A stretch of DNA of 64,000 nt from Candidatus Omnitrophota bacterium (GTDB lineage: Bacteria; Omnitrophota; Gorgyraeia; Duberdicusellales; 4484-171), in the NCBI GenBank assembly GCA_043815445.1, contig JBDRIY010000054.1:527-64526 (forward strand), written 5' to 3'. The number at the start of each line of letters is the position of its first letter. Within the stretch, counting starts at the first letter, position 1. The notes beneath the pieces are model-generated. The model was not told where the DNA came from. It was given only the letters and a program-made list of their open reading frames with translations, and made no database searches. This document shows positions 8,145-62,144 of the stretch, in pieces. Position numbers and translations under genes: made by a program.

Positions 8145-8215
8145 CTTATTCCTCCTCTCATATTGAAATTCCCATAAAGACTTATTAGGATTTAACTATT
8201 AAATATTGGAATTTA

Positions 8216-10901: not shown

Positions 10902-10966
10902 ACCGCCATTATTTATGATTTAACTGGGTAGAATTTTACCACATCAATTGACTTTTCACAAGAGAT

Positions 10967-30531: not shown

Positions 30532-30813
30532 TTATTTAATCGCCTTTATTTCTTTTAGGTCTTTGAGGAATTTTTTCATTTCTTTTTCAGCTTCTTCTTC
30601 AGTAGTATCAAACTTTTCTAAAACTATTTTTTTGATTGCGGCAAGGCTTTTTTTGCCATCAATTAGCTTCCAAACCTCTGACGCTACCTTATTCAAGGTA
30701 TAAATACAATTTATCTCATCCGAGGTTTTATAAATAGGCATTAAAATAGTTTCATCATCAATTACCCTTGTAACCATATCCGGATTTTTGCGTAAAACTC
30801 CCGCTTTTGCCAT
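30532..30813 (-). CDS. PqqD-family protein (RiPP recognition element-like peptide chaperone)
   Basis: 93 aa. ETILMPIYKTSDEINCIYTLNKVASEVWKLIDGKKSLAAIKKIVLEKFDTTEEEAEKEMKKFLKDLKEIKAI fits the PqqD pattern (LN..a..IW.l.DG...l.eI...l...y ... FL..L). Confidence 0.75.
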   Translation of the reverse strand: MAKAGVLRKNPDMVTRVIDDETILMPIYKTSDEINCIYTLNKVASEVWKLIDGKKSLAAIKKIVLEKFDTTEEEAEKEMKKFLKDLKEIKAIK

Positions 30814-33075: not shown

Positions 33076-34179
33076 TTAAACCTTTAATGATAGTGACTCT
33101 GCTTTACGTTTACTTTCCGAATCACAACTTGTAAAATCTTTATTATTAAGCCAAGCCTTAGCAGGGCACCACTTGCAATAATCTTCTAATTCACACTCCG
33201 AACATTGATAATTGTCATCAGGCTTTATATCTTTTACCGCCTTTTTCATCTTATCCCAGGCGCTTCTTAAACCCATTTTCAATATATTATATTTTAAATA
33301 ATCAATCATCAAACACATTTTTAATTCACCAAAAGGCGTAATAGCCGCCTGAGCCTGCCCCACCCCGCATTTAAAAAGACTATTCACGCTGCAAGCCGCA
33401 GGCTGCAGGCTACAGGCTTCTCCCCTTTCTCTTCCCTCTCTCTTGCTCCCTTCCTCATTGCTAACTGCTAATTGATAATTGCTAATTGATAATTCCCCCT
33501 TCTCCGTTCCCCCTTCATCCTTCGTTAACACCCCTCTATACTCAAACGGCTCCCTTGAACCGTCTAATCGCGGCAGAAGCATATCATCTAAACGGTGCAA
33601 CGCGCCTAATGAAGCGGCAAAATCTTGTATCTTTTTTATTTCCTTTTCATTTTCTTTTAAAACACAAGTTTTAAATCCCAAGCTAACCTCATTTTTACGT
33701 AAAAGTTCTATTGCCTTAAATACTTTATCCCTTGAACCGTTTGCTCCGCTAATAAGCTCAAACGCTTTTTTACTCATCCCGGGAATTGTAATATCCACTT
33801 TATTCGGACGCAGGCTCCCGAGTTGAGCCGCGATTTTCGCGTTAATCAAAGAACCATTGGTATAAATAATAATCTCGAAACCGGATTTCTTAGCATAACT
33901 AAGAATTTTTATTATATCCTTCCTCATAAAGGGCTCGCCTCCAGTAAACCCTAAATAAAAACAGCCTAAGTCTTTCAATTGGTCTAAAATAATACATATC
34001 TCTTTTGTCTTAAGCTCTTTTTTCTTATTTTTGTAACTCTGCGGAACATAACAATGCCGGCATTTAAAATTACACTCATAAGTCAACTCAAACATCACCC
34101 GTAAAGGAAAAAGTTTCTCGCGCGCCTGTTTATGCAATTTCGCGTAAAATTCCTGATTAATGTCGGTTTTTATCGCCAT
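33076..34179 (-). CDS. radical SAM / SPASM-domain peptide-modifying enzyme (paralog A)
   Basis: CNFKCRHCY, GGEPF, SPASM Cys block (CGVGQ...CLMI...CSEC...CKWCPA). Ends 2 nt before the paralog B start. Low-complexity insertion at the equivalent position. Confidence 0.85.
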   Translation of the reverse strand: MAIKTDINQEFYAKLHKQAREKLFPLRVMFELTYECNFKCRHCYVPQSYKNKKKELKTKEICIILDQLKDLGCFYLGFTGGEPFMRKDIIKILSYAKKSGFEIIIYTNGSLINAKIAAQLGSLRPNKVDITIPGMSKKAFELISGANGSRDKVFKAIELLRKNEVSLGFKTCVLKENEKEIKKIQDFAASLGALHRLDDMLLPRLDGSREPFEYRGVLTKDEGGTEKGELSISNYQLAVSNEEGSKREGRERGEACSLQPAACSVNSLFKCGVGQAQAAITPFGELKMCLMIDYLKYNILKMGLRSAWDKMKKAVKDIKPDDNYQCSECELEDYCKWCPAKAWLNNKDFTSCDSESKRKAESLSLKV

Positions 34180-34308: not shown

Positions 34309-35358
34309 CTAATTTTTTGCCCCAATAGCCAGCGCCCAATAAAAATACGCTTCCGGAATAACAGCCTGAAGCCTCTCAAGAATTTTATATTCCTTCGGAA
34401 ATGTCATTCCCTGAGTTAAGGATAAATCTATATTTTTTATAAGCCGCGGGTTTTCTTTATTTTTAAACATACTCGCCATATATACAATTTTAGCATAAGC
34501 AATTTTTATATCTTGTTTGTTTACCTTTTTCCCTAAATGATTGGTAACTTTAGCCAGGCCATCATCAATAAGCGCAATCTCCGAAAATGAATTATCAGCG
34601 CCTTTAAGTAATGCTTGTGAATATTTAAACGCGATATCTATAACATCATTGAGAACCTCATCCATAGAATAAGCTGTCCCGCGAAAATCATTCTCTTGTT
34701 GTACAGTATTCAGAAAACTCTGCTTCATGTCGTTGATGTCGCTTGCGATATTAAAAAGCTCATTTAAATCAATAATTTGCTTTACGCACTCCATTGACCG
34801 TTTTTCATTTAAAGGAATACCTATAGTCTTAGGCGAAATTGCTGTCATTTTATCGCCTAATAAGCCTTCCGGAGTTGGGATACTGACAACTGCATTTGAA
34901 TTGAAGAATACCAGCGGAAATTTTGATATGTTTTTCTCAACTAGTTTCTTATATGGATACTTTGTAAAAACAACGTCTAAAAGTATATACTGCTGTTCTT
35001 TTGAGAAATGTGATGTAAACTGAAATTTATAATGCGCTTTTGGTATCTTACTGCCGCGAATATTCTCTTTTACGATATTGAACCACTGTGATGTTGATAT
35101 CATCTTGACAAGCGCGCCTTTCAACCCTGCCCGCTCTTCCAGCGGCAAAAGAATATCAATATCTATAGATAGCCGGGCTGGCGGAAAAATATGTAAAAGG
35201 ATAGATGTCCCGCCCTTAAATACCAGCTTCGAATAAACGCCAAGTAATTCATCCAATAAATTAAAGGCATAAACTGTCTTTTCGAAAATTCCACGGTCGC
35301 TAAACCCAAGCTCTTTTCTTAAAGATTCCAACTGATTAATATCTATCTGTTTCTTCAT
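34309..35358 (-). CDS. nucleotidyltransferase AbiEii/AbiGii-family toxin (type IV TA / abortive infection)
   Basis: FKGGTSILLHIFPPARLSIDIDILL (GGT ... R.S.DID motifs). Confidence 0.75.
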   Translation of the reverse strand: MKKQIDINQLESLRKELGFSDRGIFEKTVYAFNLLDELLGVYSKLVFKGGTSILLHIFPPARLSIDIDILLPLEERAGLKGALVKMISTSQWFNIVKENIRGSKIPKAHYKFQFTSHFSKEQQYILLDVVFTKYPYKKLVEKNISKFPLVFFNSNAVVSIPTPEGLLGDKMTAISPKTIGIPLNEKRSMECVKQIIDLNELFNIASDINDMKQSFLNTVQQENDFRGTAYSMDEVLNDVIDIAFKYSQALLKGADNSFSEIALIDDGLAKVTNHLGKKVNKQDIKIAYAKIVYMASMFKNKENPRLIKNIDLSLTQGMTFPKEYKILERLQAVIPEAYFYWALAIGAKN

Positions 35359-35382
35359 AAAAACTACTTTTCTCTTGGTTAT

Positions 35383-36114
35383 CTATGGCAGTAAATTATA
35401 CTTATTGCCATAGATACCATTGTTAAGTCCAAGTTTATCAATGAGTTGTGAAATTAGCTTTCGGAGGTTTCTCCGTCTAACAGCATAATCAAAAACCGCA
35501 GCAAAATTTATCCTGTAAAGATCGTAAATAAATCCCCATAGCTCCCAATAATCAGCTTCCGGCATTATTCTGTATTTATCTTTAATAACATAAAGATCTA
35601 CCATCATCTTTTCAAGATCCGGCTTATGCCCATTTCTTGGTGACCGGTTAATAAGGGAACGCGCAATAATTGGATTTTTTGTAATGTCAAATCCCGCGGG
35701 AGAATCCTTACTTTTAGTTTCCACGAACACATAGCGGTAAAACTGAGATATTCTATCAGTTACAGGATGAACGCCGTCATATTCAACCTCTACAAAAGTG
35801 ATGTGGTGTGTTTGCTGATGATGATAATAAGGCTGAAAATATAATGTATTCCAAATAAGAAAATCAAGATCAGGAAATTCCTTTTTGATAAGCTGACGAA
35901 TTTTAATAACACGGTTATTTTTCGGACAAATAAATTCCTTTGAAACAGAAGTATATAGACCGCGCCCAGCAGAAAAAACAATTTTTTCGTCTTTAAACGA
36001 CTGTAGATAATTAAGTAACGTCTGCCTTCCAAGCCTCGTATCCTTAACAATCTGCGCTAAAGAAAAATAACGATGATTTCTTATGTATTCTCTAATTAAT
36101 TCTTTTTTATCCAA
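35383..36114 (-). CDS. AbiEi-like antitoxin / transcriptional regulator paired with AbiEii
   Basis: Co-oriented with and immediately upstream of the AbiEii gene. Winged-helix-like N-terminus IREYIRNHRYFSLAQIVKDTRLGRQTLLNYL. Confidence 0.5.
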   Translation of the reverse strand: MDKKELIREYIRNHRYFSLAQIVKDTRLGRQTLLNYLQSFKDEKIVFSAGRGLYTSVSKEFICPKNNRVIKIRQLIKKEFPDLDFLIWNTLYFQPYYHHQQTHHITFVEVEYDGVHPVTDRISQFYRYVFVETKSKDSPAGFDITKNPIIARSLINRSPRNGHKPDLEKMMVDLYVIKDKYRIMPEADYWELWGFIYDLYRINFAAVFDYAVRRRNLRKLISQLIDKLGLNNGIYGNKYNLLP

Positions 36115-36315
36115 AGCTCACCTCGATTTTGATAATTCAAGCTTCTTTGCTCTACACTGGCTATTATAACATTGGGAATTTGAAAAATGAAGAGGCTATT
36201 ACAATGGCCCCCGAAGCCTGCCCTGATTATTATATCGGGATTCCACAAGGATAATGCTAAAGGATAAACAGATATATTTACGGCAAATAACTGGGTCCTC
36301 TTTCCTCTGGTTTGC

Positions 36316-36434
36316 TTGATTAATATCAGTTTTTATCGCCATTGCCTTCCTAAATCATTCGCGCCTGAAGCGATTATCTAAAATTAGCTTCCCTACCTTA
36401 AGAATGTCTACCACAGAGTCACAAAGACACAAAG
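36316..36434. repeat. duplicated copy of the upstream region + first 8 codons of rSAM paralog A (original at 34154..34272)
   Basis: ~110 nt near-identical. Includes atggcgataaaaactgatattaat (MAIKTDIN), with no downstream continuation. Confidence 0.6.
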
Positions 36435-36460
36435 TAGAAACAAACCCCTGTATCTGTCCG

Positions 36461-36895
36461 TTATAGAACCATTCTCTTTACGCCGTTTTTCATTAAATCA
36501 GTATTAAAATTCAAAATTAACCCTATGCTTAATCCTGTTAATTTTAAATAGGTTAGCAATTGCGCTTGATGAACAGGTAAAATATTTTCTACACATTTCA
36601 TTTCAACTATCACTATATTTTCTACAATTAAATCAATCCTGTATTTTTCCGCTAACTTTATGTTTTTGTAAACGATAGGGATCTCTTTTTGCCTTAGATA
36701 CTTAACTTTATTTAATTCAAATTCCTTACATAAACATTCCTCATAGATAGATTCTAATAATCCATGGCCTAAGTGTTTATGAACTTCTATAGCACATTTT
36801 ATTATTTTTTCCGATATTCTATTCCTTAACTCTAATTTATCCATTGTATTCCTCTGTGCCTCCGTGACTCTGTGGTTTAAAGTTTTCATACCCAC
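36461..36895 (-). CDS. GxxExxY-family protein (PD-(D/E)XK-like)
   Basis: HGLLESIYEECL (G-x-x-E-x-x-Y) motif. 144 aa. Confidence 0.65.
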   Translation of the reverse strand: MGMKTLNHRVTEAQRNTMDKLELRNRISEKIIKCAIEVHKHLGHGLLESIYEECLCKEFELNKVKYLRQKEIPIVYKNIKLAEKYRIDLIVENIVIVEMKCVENILPVHQAQLLTYLKLTGLSIGLILNFNTDLMKNGVKRMVL

Positions 36896-36922
36896 TTATG
36901 TATTTTCGCGTAAAATTCCTGA

Positions 36923-38068
36923 TTAATGCCGGTTTTCATCGCCATTTTTCTGTTTATTTTCTAACTCTTCATTTAACGCCCGCGCTAATTCGCAATAATA
37001 AGGAACTGGGGCTTCTTCATCGCCTGTTTCTAAATAGGCTCTGGCCGGGCAGTGATAACAAAGCGCGCGTAACTTACAATCCCTGCATTTTGAGTCAGTT
37101 TTAAATTTCTCGCTTAATAATTTAGGAAATGCTTTATAAAACCCTTCCGCGAACGATACTTTCTTTAAATCCACGCTAAACTTATCAGAAAAAGCGCAAA
37201 ACTTAAGCCGGCCATAAGGATTAATAAAAAACTGGCTCATCCAGGCATTACAGCGGTAAAGAAATTGCCTGTCTCTCTCTAAATCAGGAAAATCATTGTC
37301 TAATCCTTTTTGATACTGCTTCCAAATATCAGAATCCTGCTTTTTCGCCTCTATCAATTCTTGGGCAGAAAGCCTATACTGACAAGGAGTTTTATCTCCA
37401 TTAAACCGGGGGTATATCATTGGATCATATTTAAAATAGTATTTATTCTTTGCCGGTTTTCCCAGAAGTTCTTCAGTAAATTCTTTTATCTTACCGACTT
37501 CATTTTTATTCTGCTTAAGACAATTTGTTTTTAGTATTAAGGGGAGTTTTTTCTTTGCTAATAATTTAACAGTTCTCATCACCTTAGAAAAAGAGCCCTG
37601 AACCTGAGTAATCGCTTCATAAGTTCTTTGGGTTATGCCATTTAAGGTAATTTCTATAGAACAAGGCGGGGATTTAACCAGATAAGAAATGATTTCTTTT
37701 GTAAATTTTTGGCCATTGGTAAAAACAGTTATAATAAATCCTTTTTCTTTAGCATAAGCGTATATCTCTAAAAAATCCTTTCTGATTAAAGGGTCTCCGC
37801 CGGTAAGAGCCAGCCAAAGGCATCCTTGCTTGTGAATTTCATCAAGAATTGTCTTCCATTGCTTTGCGGTTAATTCTTCACCCCTATTTTCGCTCCCTTT
37901 GCAGTAGCAGTGGCCGCAGTTCAAATTGCAGCGATAGGTAAGCTCAATATGCGCGCTCCAAGGATAATGTTCTTTCTTGTTTTGCAGTTTATTATAAAAA
38001 CGGCCGGAGTTTTGAACTTTCATATAAAAAGTTTTTCCTTTATAGACAAACTTAATCTGCGCGCCCAA
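36923..38068 (-). CDS. radical SAM / SPASM-domain peptide-modifying enzyme (paralog C), directly downstream of precursor peptide 1
   Basis: CNLNCGHCYC, GGDPL, SPASM Cys block (CNAW...CAFS...CRDC...CYHCPA). No low-complexity insertion. Confidence 0.85.
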   Translation of the reverse strand: MGAQIKFVYKGKTFYMKVQNSGRFYNKLQNKKEHYPWSAHIELTYRCNLNCGHCYCKGSENRGEELTAKQWKTILDEIHKQGCLWLALTGGDPLIRKDFLEIYAYAKEKGFIITVFTNGQKFTKEIISYLVKSPPCSIEITLNGITQRTYEAITQVQGSFSKVMRTVKLLAKKKLPLILKTNCLKQNKNEVGKIKEFTEELLGKPAKNKYYFKYDPMIYPRFNGDKTPCQYRLSAQELIEAKKQDSDIWKQYQKGLDNDFPDLERDRQFLYRCNAWMSQFFINPYGRLKFCAFSDKFSVDLKKVSFAEGFYKAFPKLLSEKFKTDSKCRDCKLRALCYHCPARAYLETGDEEAPVPYYCELARALNEELENKQKNGDENRH

Positions 38069-38116
38069 GAGATTTTACTATTTTCTACTTTAATCGCCCC
38101 TATTTTTAAAAAGAGT

Positions 38117-38326
38117 TTAAGAATTAGCGGATGTCAGCGACCAGTTATTACTGTTCCCTCTATGGCCCTTCCCACTGTAACATATATCGGCCCGTAGAGG
38201 CCAGTTAGTCTCACCCCTAAGCGGGTAGATTTTACCAAGATCCCAACAATCGCACATTAGCACCGCCTGTTCCGCATTAAGTTTTACCCGTGTAATTTCC
38301 GGCTTAAATTTTGGTTTTCTAAGCAT
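38117..38326 (-). CDS. candidate RiPP precursor peptide 1 (69 aa from Met17 of the ORF-track entry)
   Basis: MLRKPKFKPEITRVKLNAEQAVLMCDCWD leader shared with two other peptides. Core has 1 further Cys and ends ...TSANS. AGGAGG lies 7 nt upstream of the ATG. Confidence 0.6.
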   Translation of the reverse strand: MLRKPKFKPEITRVKLNAEQAVLMCDCWDLGKIYPLRGETNWPLRADICYSGKGHRGNSNNWSLTSANS

Positions 38327-38366
38327 TCCCGTGACCTCCTTTCGTTTTTTATTTTTTATAATAAAA

Positions 38367-39965
38367 CTACTCAATTATAAATATCTGAATTGCTTCAAGG
38401 CCGTTAGGGTAATAAATCGTTTTGATTGGGACTTTATGAGAATATTCTTTTTTAAAAGAAACATATTTATAAATAAACAAATCACCCCAATAATCCTGAG
38501 AATGAGATTCCGGCGCCCAAAGAACATAAATTCTTTTTTTTTGTTCTTTTTCGCCTTGAACTAAACGAAAATCATAATATTTATCTATTTTGCCTTTTTC
38601 CCAAAGGTAATAATTAAGGTAAAAATCCGTTGTCATTCTGCTATCTTGAATTATAACATAATCTTTAATGTTATCCAATTGGCTTAAATATTCCCCGGCC
38701 TCTTGACAGCCATAACTATTATGCCGGCACTGGCCTAAATCCAGAGGCGCGGCGTAACAAAACTTTGTCCATTGCACTGCCTCCGTAATTATTAAACTAA
38801 AGCAAAATGTACCCGTAATAATCAAAATGAACGCTTTTGTAAAGCCTTGTTTTTGCAAGCCATAGTTAAATATCTGCGCAATGAACTTAGCAATTAAAAT
38901 TATTATCGGCGGCAAAATAATAAGAGCGTATCTTGGCTGAAAAAAATTCACTCCGCCTAAAACTCCTATCAACCCTAAAATCAGCCAGGTTAAAAGAATT
39001 TTATCCGCTGTTTTCCTTTGAAAAAAAGAAGTAATACAAGAGGTGAATAAAAGAAAAAATGCTATTGGGTGAGCTAATAATGGCGCTTTCAAAGCCTTGC
39101 CGTAAAGCAAAGATGAGCTTTTAAAGTTAAAAAACAACTCTTTAAAGGTAAATAACGTATTATTTTTAATATTTACCCAAATATTAGCAAATAAATTACC
39201 TTTAAAAATGTTTTCCTGATACGCGCGGTAGAAACTTTGCCCGAATTCATCTCCCCTTATCATACTTTTATAGATAAAAGGCAAGCTGAATAAACCCGCG
39301 ATTAATAATAAAATAACAGTTATCTTGGAATTTAAAAGATATCTCGCATCTTTTTTAGCCCATATTAACGATATAAAAAATATAGGGGCAAAAAGGGCCG
39401 CGGACTCATAACTTACTAAAGATTTTTGCATAAAAAAACAAGATAATATAAACCATAGCCCAATCCCTATTTTTTCTTTATTCTCAATTGCTTTAAAAGC
39501 CTTGAACAAACTTAAAAAAATTAAACAGCCGAAAAAAGGAACCCAAATTACCCTGCCCATAATCCGGCTATGAATTAAATGCCAGGGAAGAAAACATAGC
39601 AAAAGTGAAGATATTAGAGCTGTTTTACGGCCATACATACACTTTGCTAATATATACAGCAATACAACTGTCCCCGCCCCTATGATTATCGGCTCAAAGC
39701 GGCAATGAATCATAAAATTGTTTAGGGTAAATACTTCCGGCGAAGATATACGTGAAATCAAAAAAAAACGCAGAGAATAGGGGATAAAAAAAATTATAGG
39801 TATACCTATGATTTCTTTAATTAATTCCGGCCAGATCAGTAAAATCCTTGCCCAATTAGCTTCATCATGATTTACGGGCAACATCTTTATATTATAAAAT
39901 CTTATAATAAACGCGCCGATGAAAATAACAATAATTAATAAAATATCCGGCAGTAATCGCTTCAT
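38367..39965 (-). CDS. GT-C-fold membrane glycosyltransferase (PMT/ArnT-like), paralog 1, 40 nt upstream of peptide 1
   Basis: Multi-TM. First-loop acidic motif NHDEANWAR. PMT_2-like block LLCFLPWHLIHSRIMGRVIWVPFF. ~150 aa C-terminal soluble domain. Start set at MKRLLPDILL by homology to the paralog (ORF-track start 40010). Confidence 0.55.
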   Translation of the reverse strand: MKRLLPDILLIIVIFIGAFIIRFYNIKMLPVNHDEANWARILLIWPELIKEIIGIPIIFFIPYSLRFFLISRISSPEVFTLNNFMIHCRFEPIIIGAGTVVLLYILAKCMYGRKTALISSLLLCFLPWHLIHSRIMGRVIWVPFFGCLIFLSLFKAFKAIENKEKIGIGLWFILSCFFMQKSLVSYESAALFAPIFFISLIWAKKDARYLLNSKITVILLLIAGLFSLPFIYKSMIRGDEFGQSFYRAYQENIFKGNLFANIWVNIKNNTLFTFKELFFNFKSSSLLYGKALKAPLLAHPIAFFLLFTSCITSFFQRKTADKILLTWLILGLIGVLGGVNFFQPRYALIILPPIIILIAKFIAQIFNYGLQKQGFTKAFILIITGTFCFSLIITEAVQWTKFCYAAPLDLGQCRHNSYGCQEAGEYLSQLDNIKDYVIIQDSRMTTDFYLNYYLWEKGKIDKYYDFRLVQGEKEQKKRIYVLWAPESHSQDYWGDLFIYKYVSFKKEYSHKVPIKTIYYPNGLEAIQIFIIE

Positions 39966-40140
39966 TTTTTTATGAAACTTTAACTTTCCCATTTTTCGCG
40001 CAGTCCTCAAAGGGTGCTACATTCTTCAATTATCCAAAATTATAAATTCCTGTTTTTACATAATGGCAGCTATAGGGAAAAATGCCTGTGGACGCCTGTC
40101 AACCGATAAACTATAATTAATGTAGATTACAAAGATTAAA

Positions 40141-41547
40141 CTATTCAATGCTATTCTTATTTCTTCTAAACTTAACTCCGCGAATAATCTTATCTGCCTC
40201 TTTATTAAATAACTTTATTTTTCCTGCTTTTTTGTAACATTTCATAAGAGCAAGGCTAACGCGATTATCATTCAAATTCATTTCTTTTGCTTTTATCAAT
40301 GCTTCTATAGCTTTTTTATAATGCCTTAAAGCCTCATAACAAAGGCCTAAAATTAGATAGGCTTTGCCCCCTTTGTAATTTAATTTGAAAACCCTTCTTA
40401 TATTTTTAATAGCTTCCTTATGTTTATGTAACTTCAAATATGCCTCACCAAGTTTTAAATAAGCTAAAATTTTATTCCCATCATCACAAGCGCTCTTTAA
40501 TTCATTTTTATATATTCTTATGGCTTTTCTTTCATCGCCTTTATCTCTTTTAATCGAATTATTCCTTTTTATTAAGACTGCTTTCTTAAATAATGATTCA
40601 CAATAACCGCAGGTATCGCATTTTAAATTACAATTAAGCATTTTCTTAAAAAAATAATTTTTAACCAGAATATCATAATCTATATATTCAAAATAAGAAA
40701 GGCCCGGACAGTCCAGTATTTCCAAAAGATTACCTCTAAAATGTTTACTAATATAAGCCTTGAGGCATAATTCAATTCTCTTTGTAGAAAAAACTCTCGT
40801 TGATAACTTATAATGATTTACAAATTTATCATAACAATCTAATGCGTCTGGCGGTATAAAAGGTACACGGAATACTTTTAAGGAGTTTTTTAAATATACT
40901 TCAATGCAAAATTTATCAGGAAAAACACCTTCTATGATTTTTCCTCGAGATTTTTCTCTATGTGATAAATAATTATAATGATTAACCCTATAAGGACAGT
41001 TGCCCAAACAACCCTCATTAAGCATTACTCGTATTTGAAGGCCGGTTCTCTTCTTTATCTCTTTTATTAAATTAATACTACGATTTATATCCCTATCAAT
41101 GGTTAATACATCTACGCCTAAATCTTTAAGATATAAGGCATGCTCAACGGTTTTCATATAACAGTTAACGGACGACTCTATTATTATACCGCTAATTTCC
41201 TTTTTGATTTTACTAATATAAATAGGGTTCGTAACTACCACAGAGCTAAGCCCTTTATCTCTCAATCTTTTTACATAATCCAATATATTATTAAAAAAAG
41301 TTCCGCTTAATCCAATAACGCCTTCACAGGTCGCGTTTAATAAAAGCTGTGGCCTGATATTTAAAGTATTACATTTTCTTATAATTTTCGGAATCTGTCT
41401 TGTATATGACTTTGGCTCCTGTTGATCCCTTCCAGAACCCAAATATAGCTGCGGTATAGGAAAATAAAAAGCTTCTATATTATCCTTATATGCGCCAATA
41501 AGGTCTAACATTTTAATATCATAGTTATATCCTATAGAGAATTTCAT
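40141..41547 (-). CDS. peptidase-U32-family protein (collagenase-like TIM barrel, Cys cluster) with C-terminal TPR repeats
   Basis: IEAFYFPIPQLYLGSGR ... VVVTNPIYI ... SVNCYM ... IRVMLNEGCLGNCPYRVNHYNYLS follows the U32 block order. CDTCGYCE, then TPR-like helices. Confidence 0.55.
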   Translation of the reverse strand: MKFSIGYNYDIKMLDLIGAYKDNIEAFYFPIPQLYLGSGRDQQEPKSYTRQIPKIIRKCNTLNIRPQLLLNATCEGVIGLSGTFFNNILDYVKRLRDKGLSSVVVTNPIYISKIKKEISGIIIESSVNCYMKTVEHALYLKDLGVDVLTIDRDINRSINLIKEIKKRTGLQIRVMLNEGCLGNCPYRVNHYNYLSHREKSRGKIIEGVFPDKFCIEVYLKNSLKVFRVPFIPPDALDCYDKFVNHYKLSTRVFSTKRIELCLKAYISKHFRGNLLEILDCPGLSYFEYIDYDILVKNYFFKKMLNCNLKCDTCGYCESLFKKAVLIKRNNSIKRDKGDERKAIRIYKNELKSACDDGNKILAYLKLGEAYLKLHKHKEAIKNIRRVFKLNYKGGKAYLILGLCYEALRHYKKAIEALIKAKEMNLNDNRVSLALMKCYKKAGKIKLFNKEADKIIRGVKFRRNKNSIE

Positions 41548-41565
41548 TATCTTAAAATTAATAAA

Positions 41566-41790
41566 TTATGAATTTGAACATCTAGCAGTGCAGTTCTCTT
41601 GGGTAGGTCCAGGCACAGATCTGCAGTATCCGCTTCCCTTTGACGTACAAATCTTCTCCATCCCATCGACAGTACGGAGAGCACCGCCGTCAAGCCAGCC
41701 ATCATCGTAACAGTCACAACTTAATACTGCTTGTTCAATATTAAGTTTTACTTTTGTTATTTCCAGCTTAAATTTTAGTTTTTTAGGCAT
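41566..41790 (-). CDS. candidate RiPP precursor peptide 2
   Basis: MPKKLKFKLEITKVKLNIEQAVLSCDCYD leader. Core has 4 further Cys and ends CSNS. AGGAGGTG RBS. Confidence 0.6.
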   Translation of the reverse strand: MPKKLKFKLEITKVKLNIEQAVLSCDCYDDGWLDGGALRTVDGMEKICTSKGSGYCRSVPGPTQENCTARCSNS

Positions 41791-42048
41791 TTCTCACCTC
41801 CTTGTAATAGAATCACACTACTTTGTTAAAGACTCAAAACATATCCCTTTAAACCTTAAATTCTATAAAACTCAAAATGAATTCCCTTGAGGTAAATATG
41901 ATTTAAAATTTAGATCTAAGCTTAATTTTGCTAAAAAACTTGTTGATGAAATATAACATAAGGTGTCAGCTTTTCTTATCAGCACAATTAGATTAGATAT
42001 TCTAAATCCTAAAAAAATAAATCTCCAAATCGATAAATACAAAAGAGT

Positions 42049-42255
42049 TTAAGATGTGTGACAAGATGAATCGCACTGCGTCCTCCTCGTCATCGTACGA
42101 GTAGCCGGATCGCACACCATTAAATTTGGCAGTCTCGCACGATGTGAACTTCCCTCCCTGCCACTCCATTGGTAACAACCGCAATATAACACTGCCTGCT
42201 CCACTTTGAGTTTTATCTGTATAATTTCCGGCTTAAATTTTAGCTTTCTAAACAC
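42049..42255 (-). CDS. candidate RiPP precursor peptide 3
   Basis: MFRKLKFKPEIIQIKLKVEQAVLYCGCYQW leader. Core has 3 further Cys and ends SCHTS. GGGAGGT RBS. Confidence 0.6.
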   Translation of the reverse strand: MFRKLKFKPEIIQIKLKVEQAVLYCGCYQWSGREGSSHRARLPNLMVCDPATRTMTRRTQCDSSCHTS

Positions 42256-42289
42256 TTCTTACCTCCCTTTTTAAACCTCTACTATTTAT

Positions 42290-43894
42290 TTATCTAAGTA
42301 TAAATATCTGAATTGCCTCAAGCCTATTGGGGTAATAAATAGTTTTGATTGGCCTTTCATCTGGATATTCTTTTTTAAAAAAATTAAACTGCCGAGCAAA
42401 TAAACCGCCCCAATAATCCTGATGATGAGATTCCGGGGCCCAAAGAACATAAATTCTTTTTTTTTGTTCTTTTTCGCCTTGAACTAAACGAAAATAATAA
42501 TATTTATCTATTTTTCCTTTTTCCCAAAGGTAATAATTAAGGTAAAAATCCGTTGTCATTCTGCTATCTTGAATTATAACATAATCTTTAATATCATCCA
42601 ACTGGCTTAAATACTCCGCGGCCTGTTGACAGCCATAACTGTTATGCCGGCACTGATTTAAATCCAAAGACGCGGCATAACAAAATCTTGTCCATTGCGT
42701 CATCTCAGTAACGATTAAACTAAAACAAAGCGCGCCCGCGGTAATCAGGATAAACGCTCTCCTAATTCCTTGTTTTTGGAAACTATAACTAAACATTTGA
42801 GAAATAAATTTAGCGACAATAATTACCATCGGCGGTAAAATAATAAGGACGTATCTTGGTTGGAAAAAACTCACTCCGCTTAGAACTCCCGCAAACCCTA
42901 AAATCAGCCAAATTAAAAGAAGCTTATCCGCTGTTTTCCTTTGGAAAAAAGAAATAATACAAGATACAGTTAGAAGAAAAAATACTATCGGGTGCGCCAG
43001 TAAAGGAGCTTTTAATGCCCGGCCGTAAAGCAAAGATGAACTTTTAAAGTTAAAGAATAAATCTTTGAAGGCAAAGGCAGTATTATTTGTAATATTTGCC
43101 CAAATGTTAGCGAATAGGTTGCTTGTAAAGATATTCACCTGATACCCGCGGTAAAAGTCTCTCCAAAATTTATCTCCTATTGTTATAATTTTATAAATAA
43201 AAGGCAGGATAAATAAAGAAACAATTAGCAATAATGCAATGCCTGTTTTGGGGCTTAAAAAGCTTTTTCTTTCTCCCATAATCCAAAATAATGACACAAA
43301 AAGTATCGGAATAAAAATAATCGCGGATTCATAGCTTGTCAAAGACCCTTGCAGAGAAAAACAAGATAGCAAAAACCATAATCCGGCCCATATTTTTTCT
43401 TTATTCTTGATTGCCTGCAAGGCTTTAAATAAACTTAAAAAAATCAAACAGCCAAAAAAGGGAATCCAGATCACCCTGCCCATAGTCCTGCTATGAATTA
43501 AATGCCAAGGAAGAAAGCATAATAAAAGTGAAGATATAAGGGCTGTTGGACGGCCATACATATATCTTGCCAATATATATAACAATACAACTGTGGCCGC
43601 CCCTATGATTATTGGTTCAAAACGGCAATGGACTATAAAGTTATTTAGGGTAAATGTTTCCGGCACAGATACGCGCAGAGCTAAAAAAACCCGTAAAAAA
43701 TAAGGTAGAAAGGGAAAGGAAATTACAGGAATACCTATAATTTCCTTAATAAATTCCGGCCTTTTCAGCAAAAACCTTGCCCAATTCGCTTCATCATGAT
43801 TTATAGGTAGTATTTCTATATTGTAAAATCTTATAATAAACGCGCCGATAAAAATACTAGTAATTAATAAAATATCCGGCAGCGATCGCTTCAT
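42290..43894 (-). CDS. GT-C-fold membrane glycosyltransferase (PMT/ArnT-like), paralog 2, 34 nt upstream of peptide 3
   Basis: ~75-80% identical to paralog 1 by eye. Same NHDEANWAR and PWHLIHSR blocks. Confidence 0.55.
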   Translation of the reverse strand: MKRSLPDILLITSIFIGAFIIRFYNIEILPINHDEANWARFLLKRPEFIKEIIGIPVISFPFLPYFLRVFLALRVSVPETFTLNNFIVHCRFEPIIIGAATVVLLYILARYMYGRPTALISSLLLCFLPWHLIHSRTMGRVIWIPFFGCLIFLSLFKALQAIKNKEKIWAGLWFLLSCFSLQGSLTSYESAIIFIPILFVSLFWIMGERKSFLSPKTGIALLLIVSLFILPFIYKIITIGDKFWRDFYRGYQVNIFTSNLFANIWANITNNTAFAFKDLFFNFKSSSLLYGRALKAPLLAHPIVFFLLTVSCIISFFQRKTADKLLLIWLILGFAGVLSGVSFFQPRYVLIILPPMVIIVAKFISQMFSYSFQKQGIRRAFILITAGALCFSLIVTEMTQWTRFCYAASLDLNQCRHNSYGCQQAAEYLSQLDDIKDYVIIQDSRMTTDFYLNYYLWEKGKIDKYYYFRLVQGEKEQKKRIYVLWAPESHHQDYWGGLFARQFNFFKKEYPDERPIKTIYYPNRLEAIQIFILR

Positions 43895-43984
43895 TTTGAA
43901 AAGTTTTTCTCTTTTTTGCTAGTTAAAACACGTTAGGTATATATCCTGGACTTTTTCATTGACCTTATTTACATTCTTATGATA

Positions 43985-44158
43985 TAATCTCTTTATGCCA
44001 AATATATTATGGACTGTTTCTTCAAAGTTTGGTAAATCTATTAGGTTAACTTCGAAAGTTTGGTTTGAAAAAATTCTTTTAGAGCATCCTGAATTCTCTA
44101 TTTTACCTGAATATTCAGATGAATTACGAAAAACCAGGGAAGTAAAATGGCGCAAATA
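43985..44158 (+). CDS. small ORF (57 aa), possible toxin partner of the DUF2283-like gene
   Basis: Found by hand, not in the ORF track. MPNILWTVSSKFGKSIRLTSKVWFEKILLEHPEF... Overlaps the downstream ATG by 11 nt (AAATGGCGCAAATAA). Confidence 0.3.
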
Positions 44159-44362
44159 AATATTGTAAAAAGAACTAAGCTGAATTATGACTCGGAAAGC
44201 GATGTGCTTTATATTAATTTTGATCAGCCTCAATCTGCTGATGACAGCGATATCACTGACGAAGGAGTAATTATTCGCCTCAGGGAAAATAAAATTGTCG
44301 GGCTGACTATTCTTAATGCCGCTAAGGCGCTGGTAAGTCATCCTAAACATAAACACTCCTAA
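44147..44362 (+). CDS. DUF2283-like small protein (putative antitoxin-type partner)
   Basis: 71 aa. KLNYDSESDVLYINFDQP...EGVIIRLRENKIVGLTILNA matches the DUF2283 pattern (Y D xxx D xLYI). Confidence 0.5.
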   Translation: MAQINIVKRTKLNYDSESDVLYINFDQPQSADDSDITDEGVIIRLRENKIVGLTILNAAKALVSHPKHKHS

Positions 44363-45843
44363 CTCGCGCTAAACCGGGGATATAAAATTCTCAACTTTTC
44401 CTCTATAATCATCATTTTCTTCTCAATTTTATACAACCCCCTATCTCTTCCATTTTTCTTCTGCCGCAGTCTTTTTGTTTTCAAAAATCCTTTTTTAAAT
44501 TCCTGATATCTATCGCTTATATATTGAATAAGCTCAAATTTGTTTTTAAGATATGGCAAAACCTTGAAAAGCCGCGATAGAACTTCTAGATTACTATAGC
44601 CTGTTCTAATAGCATCCTTATAAAAACCAGCGGCATCATCATATTTTTCTTCATACTCAAAGACGTGGCCTAAAAAATAATAGCTTTGCGCTTGTAAAGG
44701 TTCCAAAGCGCAGTATCGCAGTAACAATTTCTTGGCCTTATTAAAATTTTTTAAATTAAACTCTGTTTTTGCCAGTCCAAACATACTTTCTTTTTGGGCC
44801 TTACTAAATAAACTATCTTTTGTTAAATTTAAAGGTAAAGAAAAATATTTTTTTGCTTTTTTGAAATCTTTTCTTTCTAAAGCAATATTACCTACGCCCC
44901 ATAGTGAGGCTGGATTTTTAGGGTCAACCCGCAATATTTTCAAGAATTCCTTTTCAGCAAGGATAAACTTTCTTAAGGATAAATAAAGCGGGCCGTAATT
45001 ATTATCTTCCGCCCTATAACCGGAATTTATTTCTACTGCTTTACGATAATACTCTTTCTTTCCTGTGGAATAAAAAAGGTTAAAATATTCAGCGGCCTTA
45101 GTATTAATCGAATATCTTTTTTTAAACTTCTCGGGAAAAAAATAATAAGCGATTTCATCCCCTAAATGTTTATATTTCATTGGGGTATAACCGCCATTTA
45201 CTGAATAAGCAATGGTAGTAACTACAGGCCGCCGGACTTTGTCTTTAAGGATATTTACCAATTCCTGAGGTAGAATCCAAGGCCGCCTTTTGCCTATTTT
45301 TATGGTATTATTCGCGTTTAAAAGGCTGTCCACAACTAAAAAATCCGTATCGATGTCCAATAGAATAGGCTGTTCTAAGAATGGTAATTTATCCAACACA
45401 CAAACAATAAACTTTCTTCCTAAAATTTCAGCTGACGCCCAACCGTCTTTTACTATGAGAGATTTTTTATTCTCTTTTTTTATGAAATTTTTGAGGCTAT
45501 TCTTAACAATTTTTAAGGACATTTTAAATTCCTTTAATTCGCCGGGGATAACCCAATAAAAATTCTTAACAATACCTTCTTGAATTGCTGGATAAATATA
45601 ATTTCCGATATTAGTTTGCTTATCAAAGTTTTTTTCATAACGTGTAAAAGCAAGGCTGTATTCTAAATTTCTTTTTAACTCCCGCAAACTTTTTGCCTGG
45701 CTAAATACCTCTTTTATTGGTTTTGCTGGACAAAAACCAAAGTCCATATGAGCGTCAATGTGCACTAAATCAAGGTTTTTAACCCCTCTTTTCCGCCATA
45801 CCGCTAATGCTTGATCGTGATCTTCAATAATATTAATATCCAC
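44359..45843 (-). CDS. protein with arginase/deacetylase-fold-like N-domain (LVHIDAHMDFG) and C-terminal TPR repeats
   Basis: D-A-H-x-D metal-site-like motif. TPR-like helices in the last 200 aa. Confidence 0.35.
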   Translation of the reverse strand: MDINIIEDHDQALAVWRKRGVKNLDLVHIDAHMDFGFCPAKPIKEVFSQAKSLRELKRNLEYSLAFTRYEKNFDKQTNIGNYIYPAIQEGIVKNFYWVIPGELKEFKMSLKIVKNSLKNFIKKENKKSLIVKDGWASAEILGRKFIVCVLDKLPFLEQPILLDIDTDFLVVDSLLNANNTIKIGKRRPWILPQELVNILKDKVRRPVVTTIAYSVNGGYTPMKYKHLGDEIAYYFFPEKFKKRYSINTKAAEYFNLFYSTGKKEYYRKAVEINSGYRAEDNNYGPLYLSLRKFILAEKEFLKILRVDPKNPASLWGVGNIALERKDFKKAKKYFSLPLNLTKDSLFSKAQKESMFGLAKTEFNLKNFNKAKKLLLRYCALEPLQAQSYYFLGHVFEYEEKYDDAAGFYKDAIRTGYSNLEVLSRLFKVLPYLKNKFELIQYISDRYQEFKKGFLKTKRLRQKKNGRDRGLYKIEKKMMIIEEKLRILYPRFSAS

Positions 45844-45992
45844 AATGTTTTAAACTATCTTTACGTAATTGTTCTGAAAATCAATCCATAACTATCTTTA
45901 CTGCAATAAGCTAACTTTTCCTTTTTATTCTTTCAAAAAATTCATTATAATTAATCTTTTTAAAACTATCAATGTTGCTGTTTGGGCTTACA

Positions 45993-46661
45993 TTATATAT
46001 ACTTTTTTTTATTCCGATAAATATTAAAAACATTCACTCCCTTTTTAGGAATAATAAGCGCCTTTTCCTTAGGAAGAATGACTTGTCTGCCGTTTACATT
46101 TACCTTACGAACAAGACAAACCCATGAATCTACGCGGCCAACCCCGTAAGACATATAAGATATTTTACCTTCATAAAAATGAGTTTTCTTTTGCGTTGGA
46201 TGACAAATGCCAAAATCATATCCTAATAAATAAATTTCATCGCGCTCCTCCTTCATTGCTATGGAAAGCGCGAAAATTCCAACATTAGTTACTTGCCTGT
46301 AATACACTTTATCCTTTTGCTTTCTCTTAGAATAAGTGTAAGCATAAAGCTTTACTTTTGCCAAAAATGGATATTTCTTTACTGTTTTTTGTTCAAAATG
46401 CCCTTGAACGCTATGCAGGCTCACGCCCTGTCTGCTTAATTCCTGCATATAATTAATATTATTCTTAAGAAAAAACCAATCAGTCCATATTTGCCGTTTA
46501 GGTAAGTAGGGCATAGCGCGAACAGCATAATTCAGAGACCATATTTCTTCATTTTCTATTTTCTTCCATAAATCCTTCTTTAACCCTTCAGTCACACTAT
46601 AACCTCCCCCGATTAATATCACTCGTCTTCGTTTACTTTTGCTTTTATTTCTATTTTCCAT
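45993..46661 (-). CDS. hypothetical protein
   Basis: Coherent ORF with a basic N-terminus. No confident family. Confidence 0.3.
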   Translation of the reverse strand: MENRNKSKSKRRRVILIGGGYSVTEGLKKDLWKKIENEEIWSLNYAVRAMPYLPKRQIWTDWFFLKNNINYMQELSRQGVSLHSVQGHFEQKTVKKYPFLAKVKLYAYTYSKRKQKDKVYYRQVTNVGIFALSIAMKEERDEIYLLGYDFGICHPTQKKTHFYEGKISYMSYGVGRVDSWVCLVRKVNVNGRQVILPKEKALIIPKKGVNVFNIYRNKKKYI

Positions 46662-46706: not shown

Positions 46707-48292
46707 TCAGTGTATAAAAAATTTATATATTTTAGCTCCTGAACTAACTAAAGGAGCAATTATGCTAATAAACCGGTTAATAAGCCTTGTCTTAACGCTC
46801 TCAAAACTAATTATTTTTTTATTTTTTATAATACCCATAACCTTACCTAAAAACATTTCCTCAGGGACAAGCTGAGCCGCTGATATAGAATTATCTCCAC
46901 GAATATAAAACAACTGTTTATTGCCTTGTTTACTTTTTTTACCAGGCGGTGGCAAACCTTTTGATTATCTTCCTGATATAAAATAATATCTCCTATTTTC
47001 AAACTTTCAGGCAAAATCTTTTTAATTATAAGCTTTTGACCTTGTTTTATGAACGGCCACATACTAAAGCCAGATGTTTCGAAAAAGGATAAATCATTGT
47101 CTAAATCTTTTTCTTTAGCTTTAAACGCTTTAACATTGGCTGTGAACGAGCTTATTACTTTAAAAAACATATAAAATAGGCGGCTTTTATAGAAAAAGTT
47201 AGCTTTTCGGCTATAAGCGTTAAGGCCGTAATAATTAGCAAATTGTTCCTGAGGAATGTTTAAAATATAATTTGCCGGCTCTTTAAACGTATCGTATAAC
47301 AAAAAATGCGATTTAAGATAAAGTTTTTTACGTTGAGTTTGCGCGTCCGGTAAAAAAGTGTATTTTTCTATAAAATTTTGAATTAATTTCTTTTTATATT
47401 TAGAAACATTCAATTCTTTCATCAAACGCTGATAAAAATTCAGGCCGCTAAGAAATTCTACCTGATAAAGAATAAAAAATAAAGCTGAGCAAAGCTCATA
47501 TTTCTTGCTGACATTTAGACAGTATTCCCAATCAAAAGTTTTTTCATACTTATTCAATAATAACGCGGCATCATAAACGTTTTTTAAGGATAATACCTTA
47601 CCAAATCTTCGCGCGTGCAAGGCTAAGCTAAAAAGAGTATCTTCCGGCGAAAGTAGTTTTATCGCCCTGCCTTCTCTATTAACTTCTCGAACCCTGTCCC
47701 AAATTTCCGGCAATATCGCCCTGCCTTTTCGCTTAAAATCAATACCCCAGTGAAGTTCAGTAACACATAATTTATTTTCTTTTTTAAAAACAAAAGTAAT
47801 ATGGCACTGATCTTGTTTCCAATATTCTTCAGTAAAACCGCCTAACTGTTTCTTATACCCTGCATCATATAATATTGACGCCCCCTTTTCAACATCCCCC
47901 TCTTTAACCAAAAAATCTATATCCGTCATCAGCCGCAAAGGCATCCGGATATATATATCCTCAAGCAATGCCGCGCCTTTAAGAGGTAAAAGCATAACTT
48001 CTGCCTGCTCAAAAGCAGTTAATATCCGCAAAAACTCCTGCCGGATACCTTGACAACGAACCAAAGCGCAATAATGGTTATTTTTCAAAAACTCTATTAA
48101 ATCCAAAGGCAACAACGAGCTAAAATCCTTAACTAAAGAATAAACAAAAGGCGTTAATTCATGATAATTAATAAACTCTTTAAATCTTTCCCAATTGATA
48201 GATTGAGAGTTCAATAATGTTTCAATATTATCTTCTTCTACACCAACTAATTTTCTGACAACAGCTTTAATAAACTCTATTTCAGGAATCAT
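46707..48292 (-). pseudogene. PF14907-type nucleotidyltransferase fused to an S24/S26-like peptidase domain, split by a frameshift in an A7/T7 run (~46932..46938)
   Basis: N-terminus LLPLKGAALLEDIYIRMPLRLMTDIDFLV (NTP_transf_5-like). The C-terminus of the 481-aa ORF has GFSMWPF ... IGDIILY ... CHRLVKKV. The overlapping 82-aa ORF continues YIRGDNSISAAQLVPEEMFLGKV (signal-peptidase boxes D and E). Confidence 0.5.
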
Positions 48293-48322: not shown

Positions 48323-48589
48323 TTAGAAAGTATCTTCATGCTTTGCTATAGTAAGAATAAAAGCGCTATCGCCCATACGCCGATAAACACATCTATAATT
48401 CATAGTTATACTGAATTCCCAGTGGTCTATAGTTCCTTTTATGGGTTTGTGCCTAAGGGAAGGATGACGGGGATTCTTCATAAGAGTATCAAGGCACCAA
48501 TAGAACTTTTCTCTTATTTGCTTTGATAACCCCTTCTTGTTTTTAAGCTTCTTTTTTAAAGGGCCGGGGATATAAATTTCTCTGATCAT
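48323..48589 (-). CDS. RelE/ParE-family toxin
   Basis: 88 aa. ...NPRHPSLRHKPIKGTIDHWEFSITMNYRCVYRRMGDSAFILTIAKHEDTF matches the RelE/ParE fold pattern. Confidence 0.6.
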   Translation of the reverse strand: MIREIYIPGPLKKKLKNKKGLSKQIREKFYWCLDTLMKNPRHPSLRHKPIKGTIDHWEFSITMNYRCVYRRMGDSAFILTIAKHEDTF

Positions 48590-48882
48590 CCTTCAATGTC
48601 TTTTTTCAAATCCTCAACTGATTTATAGGTTGAAAAATCTCCCTTTTTAAAGGCCTCTTCCGACTCTTTAATTTCTTTTTGACATTCCGGACTGAAAAAA
48701 TATCTCTGGTCCTTGTTAACAAAAACTAAAGGTGTTACCACTATCTGGCCATTCCGGACAGCAAGCTTTACAAAATCTCCGTCTTTAATTCCCAAAAGTT
48801 TCCGGATTTCTCTGGGAATGGTAAAATGTCCATTTCTTGCAATTTCTCTCACTATTTGCTTCATCTTCTCTTTCACCTCCAC
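48586..48882 (-). CDS. AbrB/MazE/SpoVT-family antitoxin
   Basis: HFTIPREIRKLLGIKDGDFVKLAVRNGQIVVTP swapped-hairpin motif. 4-nt overlap with the toxin gene. Confidence 0.6.
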   Translation of the reverse strand: MEVKEKMKQIVREIARNGHFTIPREIRKLLGIKDGDFVKLAVRNGQIVVTPLVFVNKDQRYFFSPECQKEIKESEEAFKKGDFSTYKSVEDLKKDIEG

Positions 48883-55281: not shown

Positions 55282-55282
55282 T

Positions 55283-60272: not shown

Positions 60273-60300
60273 TGTTCTCTCCTACTCCTGCACTCCAAGT

Positions 60301-60714: not shown

Positions 60715-60716
60715 TT

Positions 60717-62129: not shown

Positions 62130-62144
62130 TTTTAATTTTGCTTT

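Follow-up and report, generated by a model that had tools for sequence, protein, structure and literature searches.

The window analysed here, a 64,000-nt stretch of contig JBDRIY010000054.1 from a Candidatus Omnitrophota bacterium, holds a peptide-modification cluster in which two membrane glycosyltransferases of the GT-C type, GT-C1 (38367-39965, 532 residues) and GT-C2 (42290-43894, 534 residues), are each encoded directly upstream of a gene for a small putative precursor peptide; all genes of interest in this cluster lie on the minus strand. With a confidence that falls a little short of even, we read GT-C1 and GT-C2 as lineage-specific paralogs within a small ArnT/PMT-like subclade that forms an optional module of radical-SAM clusters for peptides that are made on the ribosome and modified after translation (RiPPs), mainly in Omnitrophota, and that would tailor the exported peptide at the outer face of the membrane. 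The GT-C is a tailoring option and not a core enzyme of these clusters, and the case is one of an enzyme superfamily already known that turns up in a biosynthetic setting new for it, inside a seemingly undescribed peptide family. The first-pass annotation of this DNA, according to which each precursor peptide has its own PMT/ArnT-like GT-C from a recent cassette duplication, is plausible in the light of the sequence comparisons below and is not refuted by them, although it turns out to be less specific than claimed.

That GT-C1 and GT-C2 are real GT-C enzymes with an acidic loop, as had been supposed, was borne out by both fold and sequence. The Pfam model PMT_2 (PF13231, cutoff 26.1 bits) matched GT-C2 with 28.3 bits and GT-C1 just under the cutoff with 23.8 bits, and a second, distinct PMT_2-type GT-C in the window, GT-C3 (48934-50457), scored 55 bits; the NCBI name of GT-C1 and GT-C2 is 'glycosyltransferase family 39 protein'. 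GT-C2 was modelled with AlphaFold2 on the basis of 38 family members (pLDDT 89.5, pTM 0.90); the model has 11 long hydrophobic helices, and its top 31 matches in a Foldseek search of the PDB were all GT-C enzymes (probability 0.99-1.0), among them STT3, AglB, ArnT, Pmt4, ALG12, PglB, AftA and Emb, with a query-normalised TM-score of about 0.5 and an identity of about 10% for the best-aligned structures. At the sequence level the family profile matched ArnT only among solved structures (5EZM, E 4.8e-5); the family motif 'NHDEA.W' (nhDEakwa) aligned to 'GPDEGRYA' of ArnT, with D34-E35 over its 'PDE'. Across the 38 family members E35 does not vary and D34 is conserved to at least 90%, and the other conserved outer-loop residues comprise the invariant W130, H131 and S135 and the nearly invariant R136 and R347. 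The helices and the positive-inside rule predict 11 transmembrane segments with the N-terminus inside, and they put the D34-E35 loop, which joins TM1 and TM2, on the face away from the K/R-rich loops, that is, outside, where the C-terminal domain (residues 408-534, with conserved Cys) is predicted to lie as well. By modelled fold and acidic loop, then, both proteins agree with the GT-C superfamily in the defining features that were tested. The defining domains of a protein O-mannosyltransferase proper (GT39, PMT) are absent: PMT_2 was the only such Pfam match in these proteins, with none to PMT (PF02366), MIR or PMT_4TMC at E <= 0.01, and Pmt structures align with GT-C2 over only about 250 columns (TM-score 0.32-0.34).

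The two proteins are full-length paralogs with 401 of 534 residues identical (75%). By blastn, the duplicated unit (38245-39968 and 42174-43897) comprises the GT-C gene, the spacer and the leader of peptide 1 or peptide 3, respectively, as far as codon 27, and is 79% identical at the DNA level over 1733 columns; the repeat sets in 3 nt 5' of the GT-C ATG, crosses the spacer and stops at leader codon 27. The identity of about 75-80% given in the first-pass annotation therefore held at both levels, as did both spacings, with peptide 1 (38117-38326, 69 residues) following the GT-C1 stop by 40 nt and peptide 3 (42049-42255, 68 residues, GTG start) following that of GT-C2 by 34 nt. Its description of the downstream cores as unrelated was likewise confirmed, with 58% nucleotide matches between the cores of peptides 1 and 3 against 60% for shuffled sequence. 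Since a 14-nt string, TCTTAAACTCTTTT, which covers the last Ser codon, the stop codon and bases 3' of the stop, is common to both peptide genes, the original duplication probably included the GT-C together with the whole peptide gene, and the peptide core has since been replaced or has fully diverged. A 24-mer that had been quoted as part of duplicated flanking DNA does occur exactly twice (0 expected), but in the 3' coding ends of the GT-C genes (...PIKTIYYPN.LEAIQIFI) and not in flanking DNA.

The duplication had also been called recent, which the divergence of the copies (dS = 0.73, dN = 0.15, dN/dS = 0.20) does not bear out; at the level of codon substitutions these values show both copies to be under purifying selection. 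Only a patch of ~140 nt in the part encoding the C-terminal outer domain (38533-38669 and 42456-42592) looks recently homogenised: it reaches 97-100% identity in 60-nt windows, contains a perfect run of 77 nt against a permutation maximum of 58 and has a local dS of 0.05, which makes gene conversion between the GT-C copies probable. In a search of 5.8 billion proteins GT-C1 and GT-C2 were mutually nearest, the next match being 58% identical, and because the copies are each other's nearest relatives we regard the duplication as lineage-specific. The rule of one GT-C for each peptide fails in the window itself, where peptide 2 (41566-41790, 74 residues) has no adjacent GT-C; it is separated from the cassette of GT-C1 by a gene for a U32-like protein with tetratricopeptide repeats (TPR; 40141-41547, 468 residues; Peptidase_U32 at a borderline 22.2 bits), which lies between both cassettes.

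Each peptide gene is preceded by a ribosome-binding site of the GGAGGT type, which is strong for peptides 1 and 3. Peptide 3 has the leader MFRKLKFKPEIIQIKLKVEQAVL, a core that starts with YCGCY and the C-terminus ...CHTS; peptide 1 has the leader MLRKPKFKPEITRVKLNAEQAVL, a core starting with MCDCW and the C-terminus ...TSANS; and peptide 2, the database entry P0044 ('hypothetical protein'), has a leader of the same family and ends in ...CSNS. The leader common to the three reads M.(K/R)K.KFKPEI..(I/V)KL..EQAVL and is followed by xCxC, and eight aligned peptides share M1, K4, E10, L16, E19, Q20, A21, L23, C25 and C27 before they diverge. None of the window peptides matches a Pfam or NCBIfam model. 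A profile search returned 508 homologues, mostly from Omnitrophota and none with a functional name, the few named ones being almost all 'hypothetical protein', and a scan of one genome per species gave 61 peptide loci, again mostly in Omnitrophota; the peptide patterns used are strict and the peptide counts are lower bounds. Literature searches on Omnitrophota RiPPs with radical SAM enzymes and on RiPPs that combine HprK with radical SAM enzymes found nothing on the peptide family, which is apparently large and undescribed. The C-terminal residue is Ser (53) or Thr (4) in all 57 distinct complete peptides, whatever their core, and the constant features of the core are limited to the CxC at its N-terminus and the Ser at its C-terminus. 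A second leader type (M..K.W..PKLI.L.R...E..L..CK...), whose peptides also end in Ser, is served by the same enzymes and occurs with GT-C genes (L007:8279-8750, L084:7443-7799 and L089:3025-3204, minus strand; L numbers denote homologous loci), and one machinery may thus serve two leader families. The metagenome-assembled genome STF1_137 (L071-L075, L078, L081) carries at least a dozen family peptides with an SCC-type core start on several contigs, with few or no cluster enzymes within 10 kb (only L078 has two weak matches), a set that resembles a dispersed precursor library.

The order of the surrounding genes is that of a RiPP cluster. As determined by tblastn across the 61 loci, the highly regular order starts, often after an S24/signal-peptidase-like gene, with an arginase-like gene with TPR, PqqD and the peptide gene or genes, and continues with radical SAM/SPASM, radical SAM, HprK/ScmC-like, radical SAM and ATP-binding cassette (ABC) exporter genes and sometimes NTP_transf_5. 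PqqD, the peptide, radical SAM/SPASM, radical SAM, HprK-like, radical SAM and ABC genes are present in most of the longer loci. In the window the radical SAM/SPASM maturase (36923-38068, 381 residues) lies just downstream of peptide 1, and its homologue comes after the peptide in most of the 61 loci; it is followed by two further radical SAM enzymes (33076-34179 and 31908-33074), the HprK/ScmC-like P-loop protein (30889-31857), PqqD (about 30556-30813) and the ABC exporter (28609-30375). The conserved leader with its variable core and the synteny of PqqD, radical SAM/SPASM and exporter genes identify these loci, judged by sequence, as RiPP clusters.

Seen from the side of the GT-C, the association with such clusters is close. 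A neighbour-joining tree of 41 database homologues and the locus-derived sequences split into two clades, and clade A (P0001-P0019), which includes the window pair, was found in a RiPP setting for all 13 genes with readable context (the two in the window, one each in L001, L004, L007-L009 and L087-L090, and two in L091). A peptide gene lies no more than 160 nt downstream on the same strand in six clade A cases, with distances of 40 and 34 nt in the window, 40 nt in L001, about 20 nt in L009, 101 nt in L088 and 157 nt in L091. Peptide homologues therefore do co-occur with GT-C genes elsewhere, as the first-pass annotation would have it, and stand directly downstream of them in L001, L009, L088 and L091. 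The arrangements vary: L001 reads ABC, GT-C, peptide, radical SAM, CYTH, PqqD, ScmC-like and three radical SAM genes; L004 reads GT-C, S24-like, CYTH, arginase-like, PqqD, peptides, U32-like, radical SAM and peptide; L087 reads PMT_2, S24-like, NTP_transf_5, GT-C, PqqD, peptide, radical SAM genes and ABC; and in L009 the GT-C is followed by a peptide gene. In L088 a peptide gene precedes the GT-C and another follows it ahead of a radical SAM gene, in L089 a convergent peptide gene lies 70 nt from the GT-C, in L090 the GT-C is followed after 8 nt by an arginase-like gene, and in L008 NTP_transf_5 and S24-like genes adjoin the GT-C, with radical-SAM-like genes several kb off and no peptide found. 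In L091 (1-3260) two GT-C genes enclose two peptide genes, the second GT-C following after 200 nt, and since these GT-C copies are only 47% identical, the interleaving of GT-C and peptide genes arose more than once.

In several GT-C loci the start and stop codons abut or overlap, as in L007, where peptides and a radical SAM gene (stop 9983) are followed by the GT-C (9986-11575) and the ABC gene (start 11568), in the NTP_transf_5/GT-C/PqqD run of L087 and in the run of NTP_transf_5, GT-C and a radical SAM-ScmC fusion of L084. The GT-C often stands beside the ABC exporter (L001, L007, L016), and GT-C3-type homologues stand beside or near NTP_transf_5 in L001, L007, L021 and L087, L021 carrying only this type. 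Clade B is mixed, with L084, L016, L015 and L014 in RiPP settings; L016 has the full enzyme set and a GT-C, and no peptide was found in the stretch searched.

The reading that we favour would run as follows. The precursor would be bound through its conserved leader by PqqD and modified in the cytoplasm, the candidate steps being radical-SAM cross-links at Cys and possibly the conversion of Arg to ornithine; the C-terminal Ser would probably be phosphorylated by the HprK-like protein; the leader would be cut off and the peptide would leave through the ABC transporter; and the GT-C would then move a sugar from a polyprenyl-phosphate carrier to the peptide at the outer face of the inner membrane. 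As its active site is predicted to face outward, the GT-C could act on the peptide only after ABC export, with which the frequent adjacency of the GT-C and ABC genes fits. The S24-like peptidase lacks an N-terminal membrane anchor and is fused to the cytoplasmic NTP_transf_5 in two loci, and for this reason the leader is probably cut off before export, so that recognition by the GT-C would have to rest on a feature outside the leader. The donor may be supplied or extended by the nearby WecA-like, GT4, GT2, Wzy_C and second-type GT-C proteins, and WecA-like, GT4 and GT2 genes do form the context of the GT-Cs on the donor side. The first-pass annotation had pointed to the GT2 and GT4 genes beside the third GT-C as a possible source of a lipid-linked donor: the adjacency of GT-C3 to the GT4 (50457-51584) and the GT2 (51753-52562), which comes first in the 5'-to-3' order of the cluster, holds, but the GT2 is of a generic kind: it is best matched by exopolysaccharide EpsD-, chondroitin- and heparosan-type enzymes, with a weak match to Dpm synthase, and is not recognisable as a polyprenyl-phosphate-sugar synthase, which leaves donor supply by the GT2 and GT4 a generic proposal.

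Two TPR-fused enzymes recur in clusters of the family, the U32-like protein, with homologues in the clusters of L004, L026 and L034, and the peptide-arginase-like protein (44359-45843; PF12640, FlmR/OhkR N-terminal), which is regularly present in these clusters. Peptides 1 and 3 are Arg-rich, and conversion of their Arg to ornithine by the arginase-like protein is conceivable. In the window the NTP_transf_5 nucleotidyltransferase (46847-48292; PF14907, 137.9 bits) carries a C-terminal signal-peptidase-I/S24-like domain (sigpep_I_arch at residues 406-463). Its frame breaks near 46955, and the S24 domain continues in an open reading frame at 46707-46955 (tblastn: 46722-46940); the same fusion is unbroken in L001:3706-5544, and the break in the window reflects either a frameshift (pseudogene) or a fault of the assembly. 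The HprK/ScmC-like protein matches its models weakly (ScmC, E 7e-8 and 32 bits against a cutoff of 125; HprK_rel_B, 29 bits against a cutoff of 200; Pfam Hpr_kinase_C, E 0.009). CYTH (triphosphate-tunnel) proteins are encoded in L001, L004 and L077 and would fit a phosphate-based chemistry. By analogy with known systems, the combination of the invariant C-terminal Ser/Thr, the HprK/ScmC-like protein, NTP_transf_5 and CYTH suggests a phosphorylation-based chemistry at the C-terminus.

The closest parallel for such a chemistry comes from the lasso peptides paeninodin and pseudomycoidin, whose systems have a C-terminal Ser, an HprK-like kinase, a PqqD-type leader binder, an ABC exporter and an 'uncharacterised nucleotidyltransferase' that is sometimes fused to the leader protease, and hexoses are attached to the Ser phosphate in pseudomycoidin (PMC6993621, PMC8498205). 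Akin to these, every one of the 57 peptides here has a C-terminal Ser/Thr, and NTP_transf_5 carries a fused peptidase-like domain. Unlike them, the present cluster has three radical SAM/SPASM enzymes, neither it nor the homologous loci showed a lasso cyclase or B2 protease, and the kinase is matched only weakly, so that phosphorylation is something we infer. The asparagine synthase of the window (62145-63947) is set some 18 kb apart from the peptides and includes a complete glutamine amidotransferase domain. The SynChlorMet (Scm) cassette defined in NCBIfam/TIGRFAMs likewise combines a ScmC-like P-loop protein, PqqD and paired radical SAM/SPASM enzymes, whereas the matches here are far under the equivalog cutoffs (ScmE 90.7 against 400, ScmC 32 against 125); a literature search on this cassette found no paper. 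Rather doubtful, and resting on analogy, is the further proposal that these would be the first ribosomal peptides finished outside the cytoplasm by a GT-C with a lipid-linked sugar, the acceptor possibly being the phosphate of a C-terminal phospho-Ser instead of a Ser/Thr hydroxyl, much as ArnT acts on lipid A phosphates. An acceptor phosphate would join the C-terminal Ser, the HprK-like protein, the NTP_transf_5 that abuts the GT-C and CYTH into one phosphoglycosylation pathway.

As enzymes, the window GT-Cs resemble the ArnT (GT83), PMT_2 and GT39-like proteins in their GT-C fold, multi-helix membrane domain, D-E pair in the first outer loop and C-terminal outer domain. ArnT has 13 helices, as opposed to the 11 predicted here, the similarity to solved structures is low (see above), and the window genes belong to a peptide-maturation operon and not to a lipid A or protein-mannosylation setting. 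GT39-type membrane glycosyltransferases are described as rare in natural-product clusters, the examples being Ama4 (arabimalamides) and the primycin arabinosyltransferase, for which decoration of the product has been proposed (PMC13110770). These share with the present enzymes that they are membrane GT-Cs, are thought to use polyprenyl-phosphate sugars and are encoded inside a secondary-metabolite cluster; their products are non-ribosomal peptides or polyketides of actinomycetes, whereas the candidate substrate here is ribosomal, radical-SAM-modified and made in a candidate phylum of the Gram-negative type. The mannosyltransferases Ram29 of ramoplanin and Dbv20 of A40926 are similar cases. The glycosyltransferase gene adjoins the precursor peptide gene in the glycocin-type SunS family as well. 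SunS-type RiPP glycosyltransferases are soluble GT2 enzymes of the GT-A fold that use nucleotide sugars in the cytoplasm, whereas the window enzymes are membrane proteins of the GT-C fold with the catalytic side predicted to face outward. A full-text literature search joining RiPP, GT-C, precursor peptide and glycosyltransferase returned no paper.

Several observations weigh against tailoring of the exported peptide. Glycosylation of the peptide is deduced, with the peptide as acceptor predicted from gene context. From the peptide side, a family GT-C lies within 10 kb in only one of the 61 species-representative loci (L052), where the copy (7657-8949) falls into three frames and is missing its C-terminus, being either a decaying gene or poorly assembled. 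No polyprenyl-phosphate-sugar synthase of the ArnC, GtrB or Dpm1 type was recognised among the nearby glycosyltransferases. The known maturation steps are cytoplasmic and the predicted active site faces outward, which probably leaves the hypervariable core as the recognition surface. The Ser/Thr-rich tails had been put forward as acceptors, and a Ser-rich tail is indeed present, but it is family-wide, with or without a GT-C, and goes with the core HprK-like kinase, not with the GT-C. No C-terminal motif is specific to GT-C-linked peptides, the endings SS, NS and TS occurring with and without a GT-C, and N-x-S/T sequons, sought by eye in view of the fold matches to oligosaccharyltransferases, occur once each in peptides 1 and 2 and not in peptide 3 and hence form no consistent pattern. 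A comparison of the paralogs for divergence of the periplasmic loops gave the opposite: the segments predicted to face outward are the best conserved (79% identity, against 71% for transmembrane and 69% for cytoplasmic segments) and residues 183-242 (TM6, a cytoplasmic loop and TM7) are the most divergent stretch, so that there is no sign of peptide-specific adaptation, and 'own GT-C for each peptide' thus describes gene order and not a demonstrated specificity. Finally, the clade B members of L082, L085 and L017 lie in housekeeping settings and those of L083 and L086 in an ATP-grasp/lysine-aminomutase-like operon, on account of which an envelope substrate is likely ancestral; the gene contexts suggest that an envelope GT-C was likely recruited into the peptide clusters.

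These same clade B relatives lend some weight to the idea that the GT-C protects the producer, in that an ArnT-like enzyme would modify the producer's envelope (lipid A phosphates, say, or a different glycolipid of the surface) against the exported peptide and travel with the peptide like a bacteriocin immunity gene. ArnT, the only solved structure matched at the sequence level, is a lipid A-modifying resistance enzyme, the predicted outward topology suits an envelope substrate, and the close gene-by-gene pairing and co-duplication with the peptide resemble bacteriocin/immunity cassettes. Yet immunity would be needed by all producers, and about 98% of the family loci are without a GT-C; a general envelope modification needs no paralog per peptide; and the cores are not uniformly cationic, peptide 2 being net acidic by a count from its sequence. 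We know of no immunity protein of the GT-C fold, and on balance consider self-protection unlikely. Mere adjacency, in which the GT-Cs belong to envelope glycan loci (Wzy_C, GT9, GT4, WecA-like) where peptide clusters insert and the duplication carried the peptide along, would account for the glycan genes that flank the clusters in the window, L004, L016, L052 and L084, for the island mosaic with its toxin-antitoxin and other insertions, and for the fact that most clusters do without a GT-C. It is made quite improbable by the placing of all 13 readable clade A genes among peptide or cluster genes, six of them within 160 nt of a downstream peptide gene, by several codon overlaps with radical SAM, NTP_transf_5, PqqD or ABC genes and not with glycan genes, and by the purifying selection on both copies. 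That the GT-C might instead be no transferase at all and either assist the ABC transporter as a partner in export, flipping or docking or act as the mature peptide's receptor strikes us as very improbable: the frequent adjacency of the ABC exporter and the best NCBIfam match, TIGR03663 ('flippase activity-associated protein Agl23'), speak for it, but that match, at 35.8 bits, is weak and far under the cutoff, and the conservation of D34/E35 together with W130, H131, S135, R136 and R347 is what is expected of a working GT-C active site.

The remaining genes of the window cluster fall on both sides of those described above. GT9 (heptosyltransferase-family) and Wzy_C (O-antigen-ligase/PglL-like) genes repeatedly border GT-C clusters (L004, L016, L052, L084), and in the window a divergent Wzy_C gene (25259-26497, plus strand) ends the cluster after a GT4 (27468-28592) and a WecA-like phosphoglycosyltransferase (26447-27493). 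The Wzy_C-type TfpO/PilO glycosylates the C-terminal Ser of Pseudomonas pilin, and by analogy Wzy_C and GT9 could be alternative enzymes acting on the C-terminal Ser. An MptE-like protein (45993-46661) is encoded between NTP_transf_5 and the arginase-like gene. Small genes of mobile or toxin-antitoxin type break up the cluster at 34309-36895, 43995-44362 (plus strand) and 48323-48882; they comprise a GxxExxY (PD-(D/E)XK) protein and an AbiEii/DUF6577 pair (within 34309-36895, 3' of the radical SAM/SPASM gene), a small DUF2283 pair (within 43995-44362, plus strand, between the arginase-like gene and GT-C2) and a MazE-like antitoxin (48586-48882, 3' of GT-C3). A 145-codon open reading frame on the minus strand (43919-44356) overlaps the DUF2283 pair and is probably no real gene. 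Scans of 36000-46500 gave 50 promoter hits against 42.6 in shuffled sequence and 5 terminator hits against 7.8; as neither count is above background, the scans are uninformative on operon structure. An upstream block (53926-63947) encodes two B12-binding radical SAM enzymes, two further radical SAM enzymes (one with SPASM), a GT2, a methyltransferase and the asparagine synthase; no family peptide was seen in it, and the block may constitute a glycan or metabolite cluster of its own.

The glycosyltransferases known to take part in the tailoring of ribosomal peptides are, to our knowledge, soluble and draw on nucleotide sugars. If the reading favoured here is true, the biosynthesis of these peptides would gain, through a GT-C that acts on them after export, a second stage outside the cytoplasm, and peptide engineering a new enzyme class; if the GT-C protects the producer instead, it would represent a new kind of bacteriocin immunity. 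The peptide family, with its 508 matches, fixed leader, hypervariable Cys core and C-terminal Ser/Thr, gives studies of an uncultured phylum's secondary metabolism a concrete and testable starting point.

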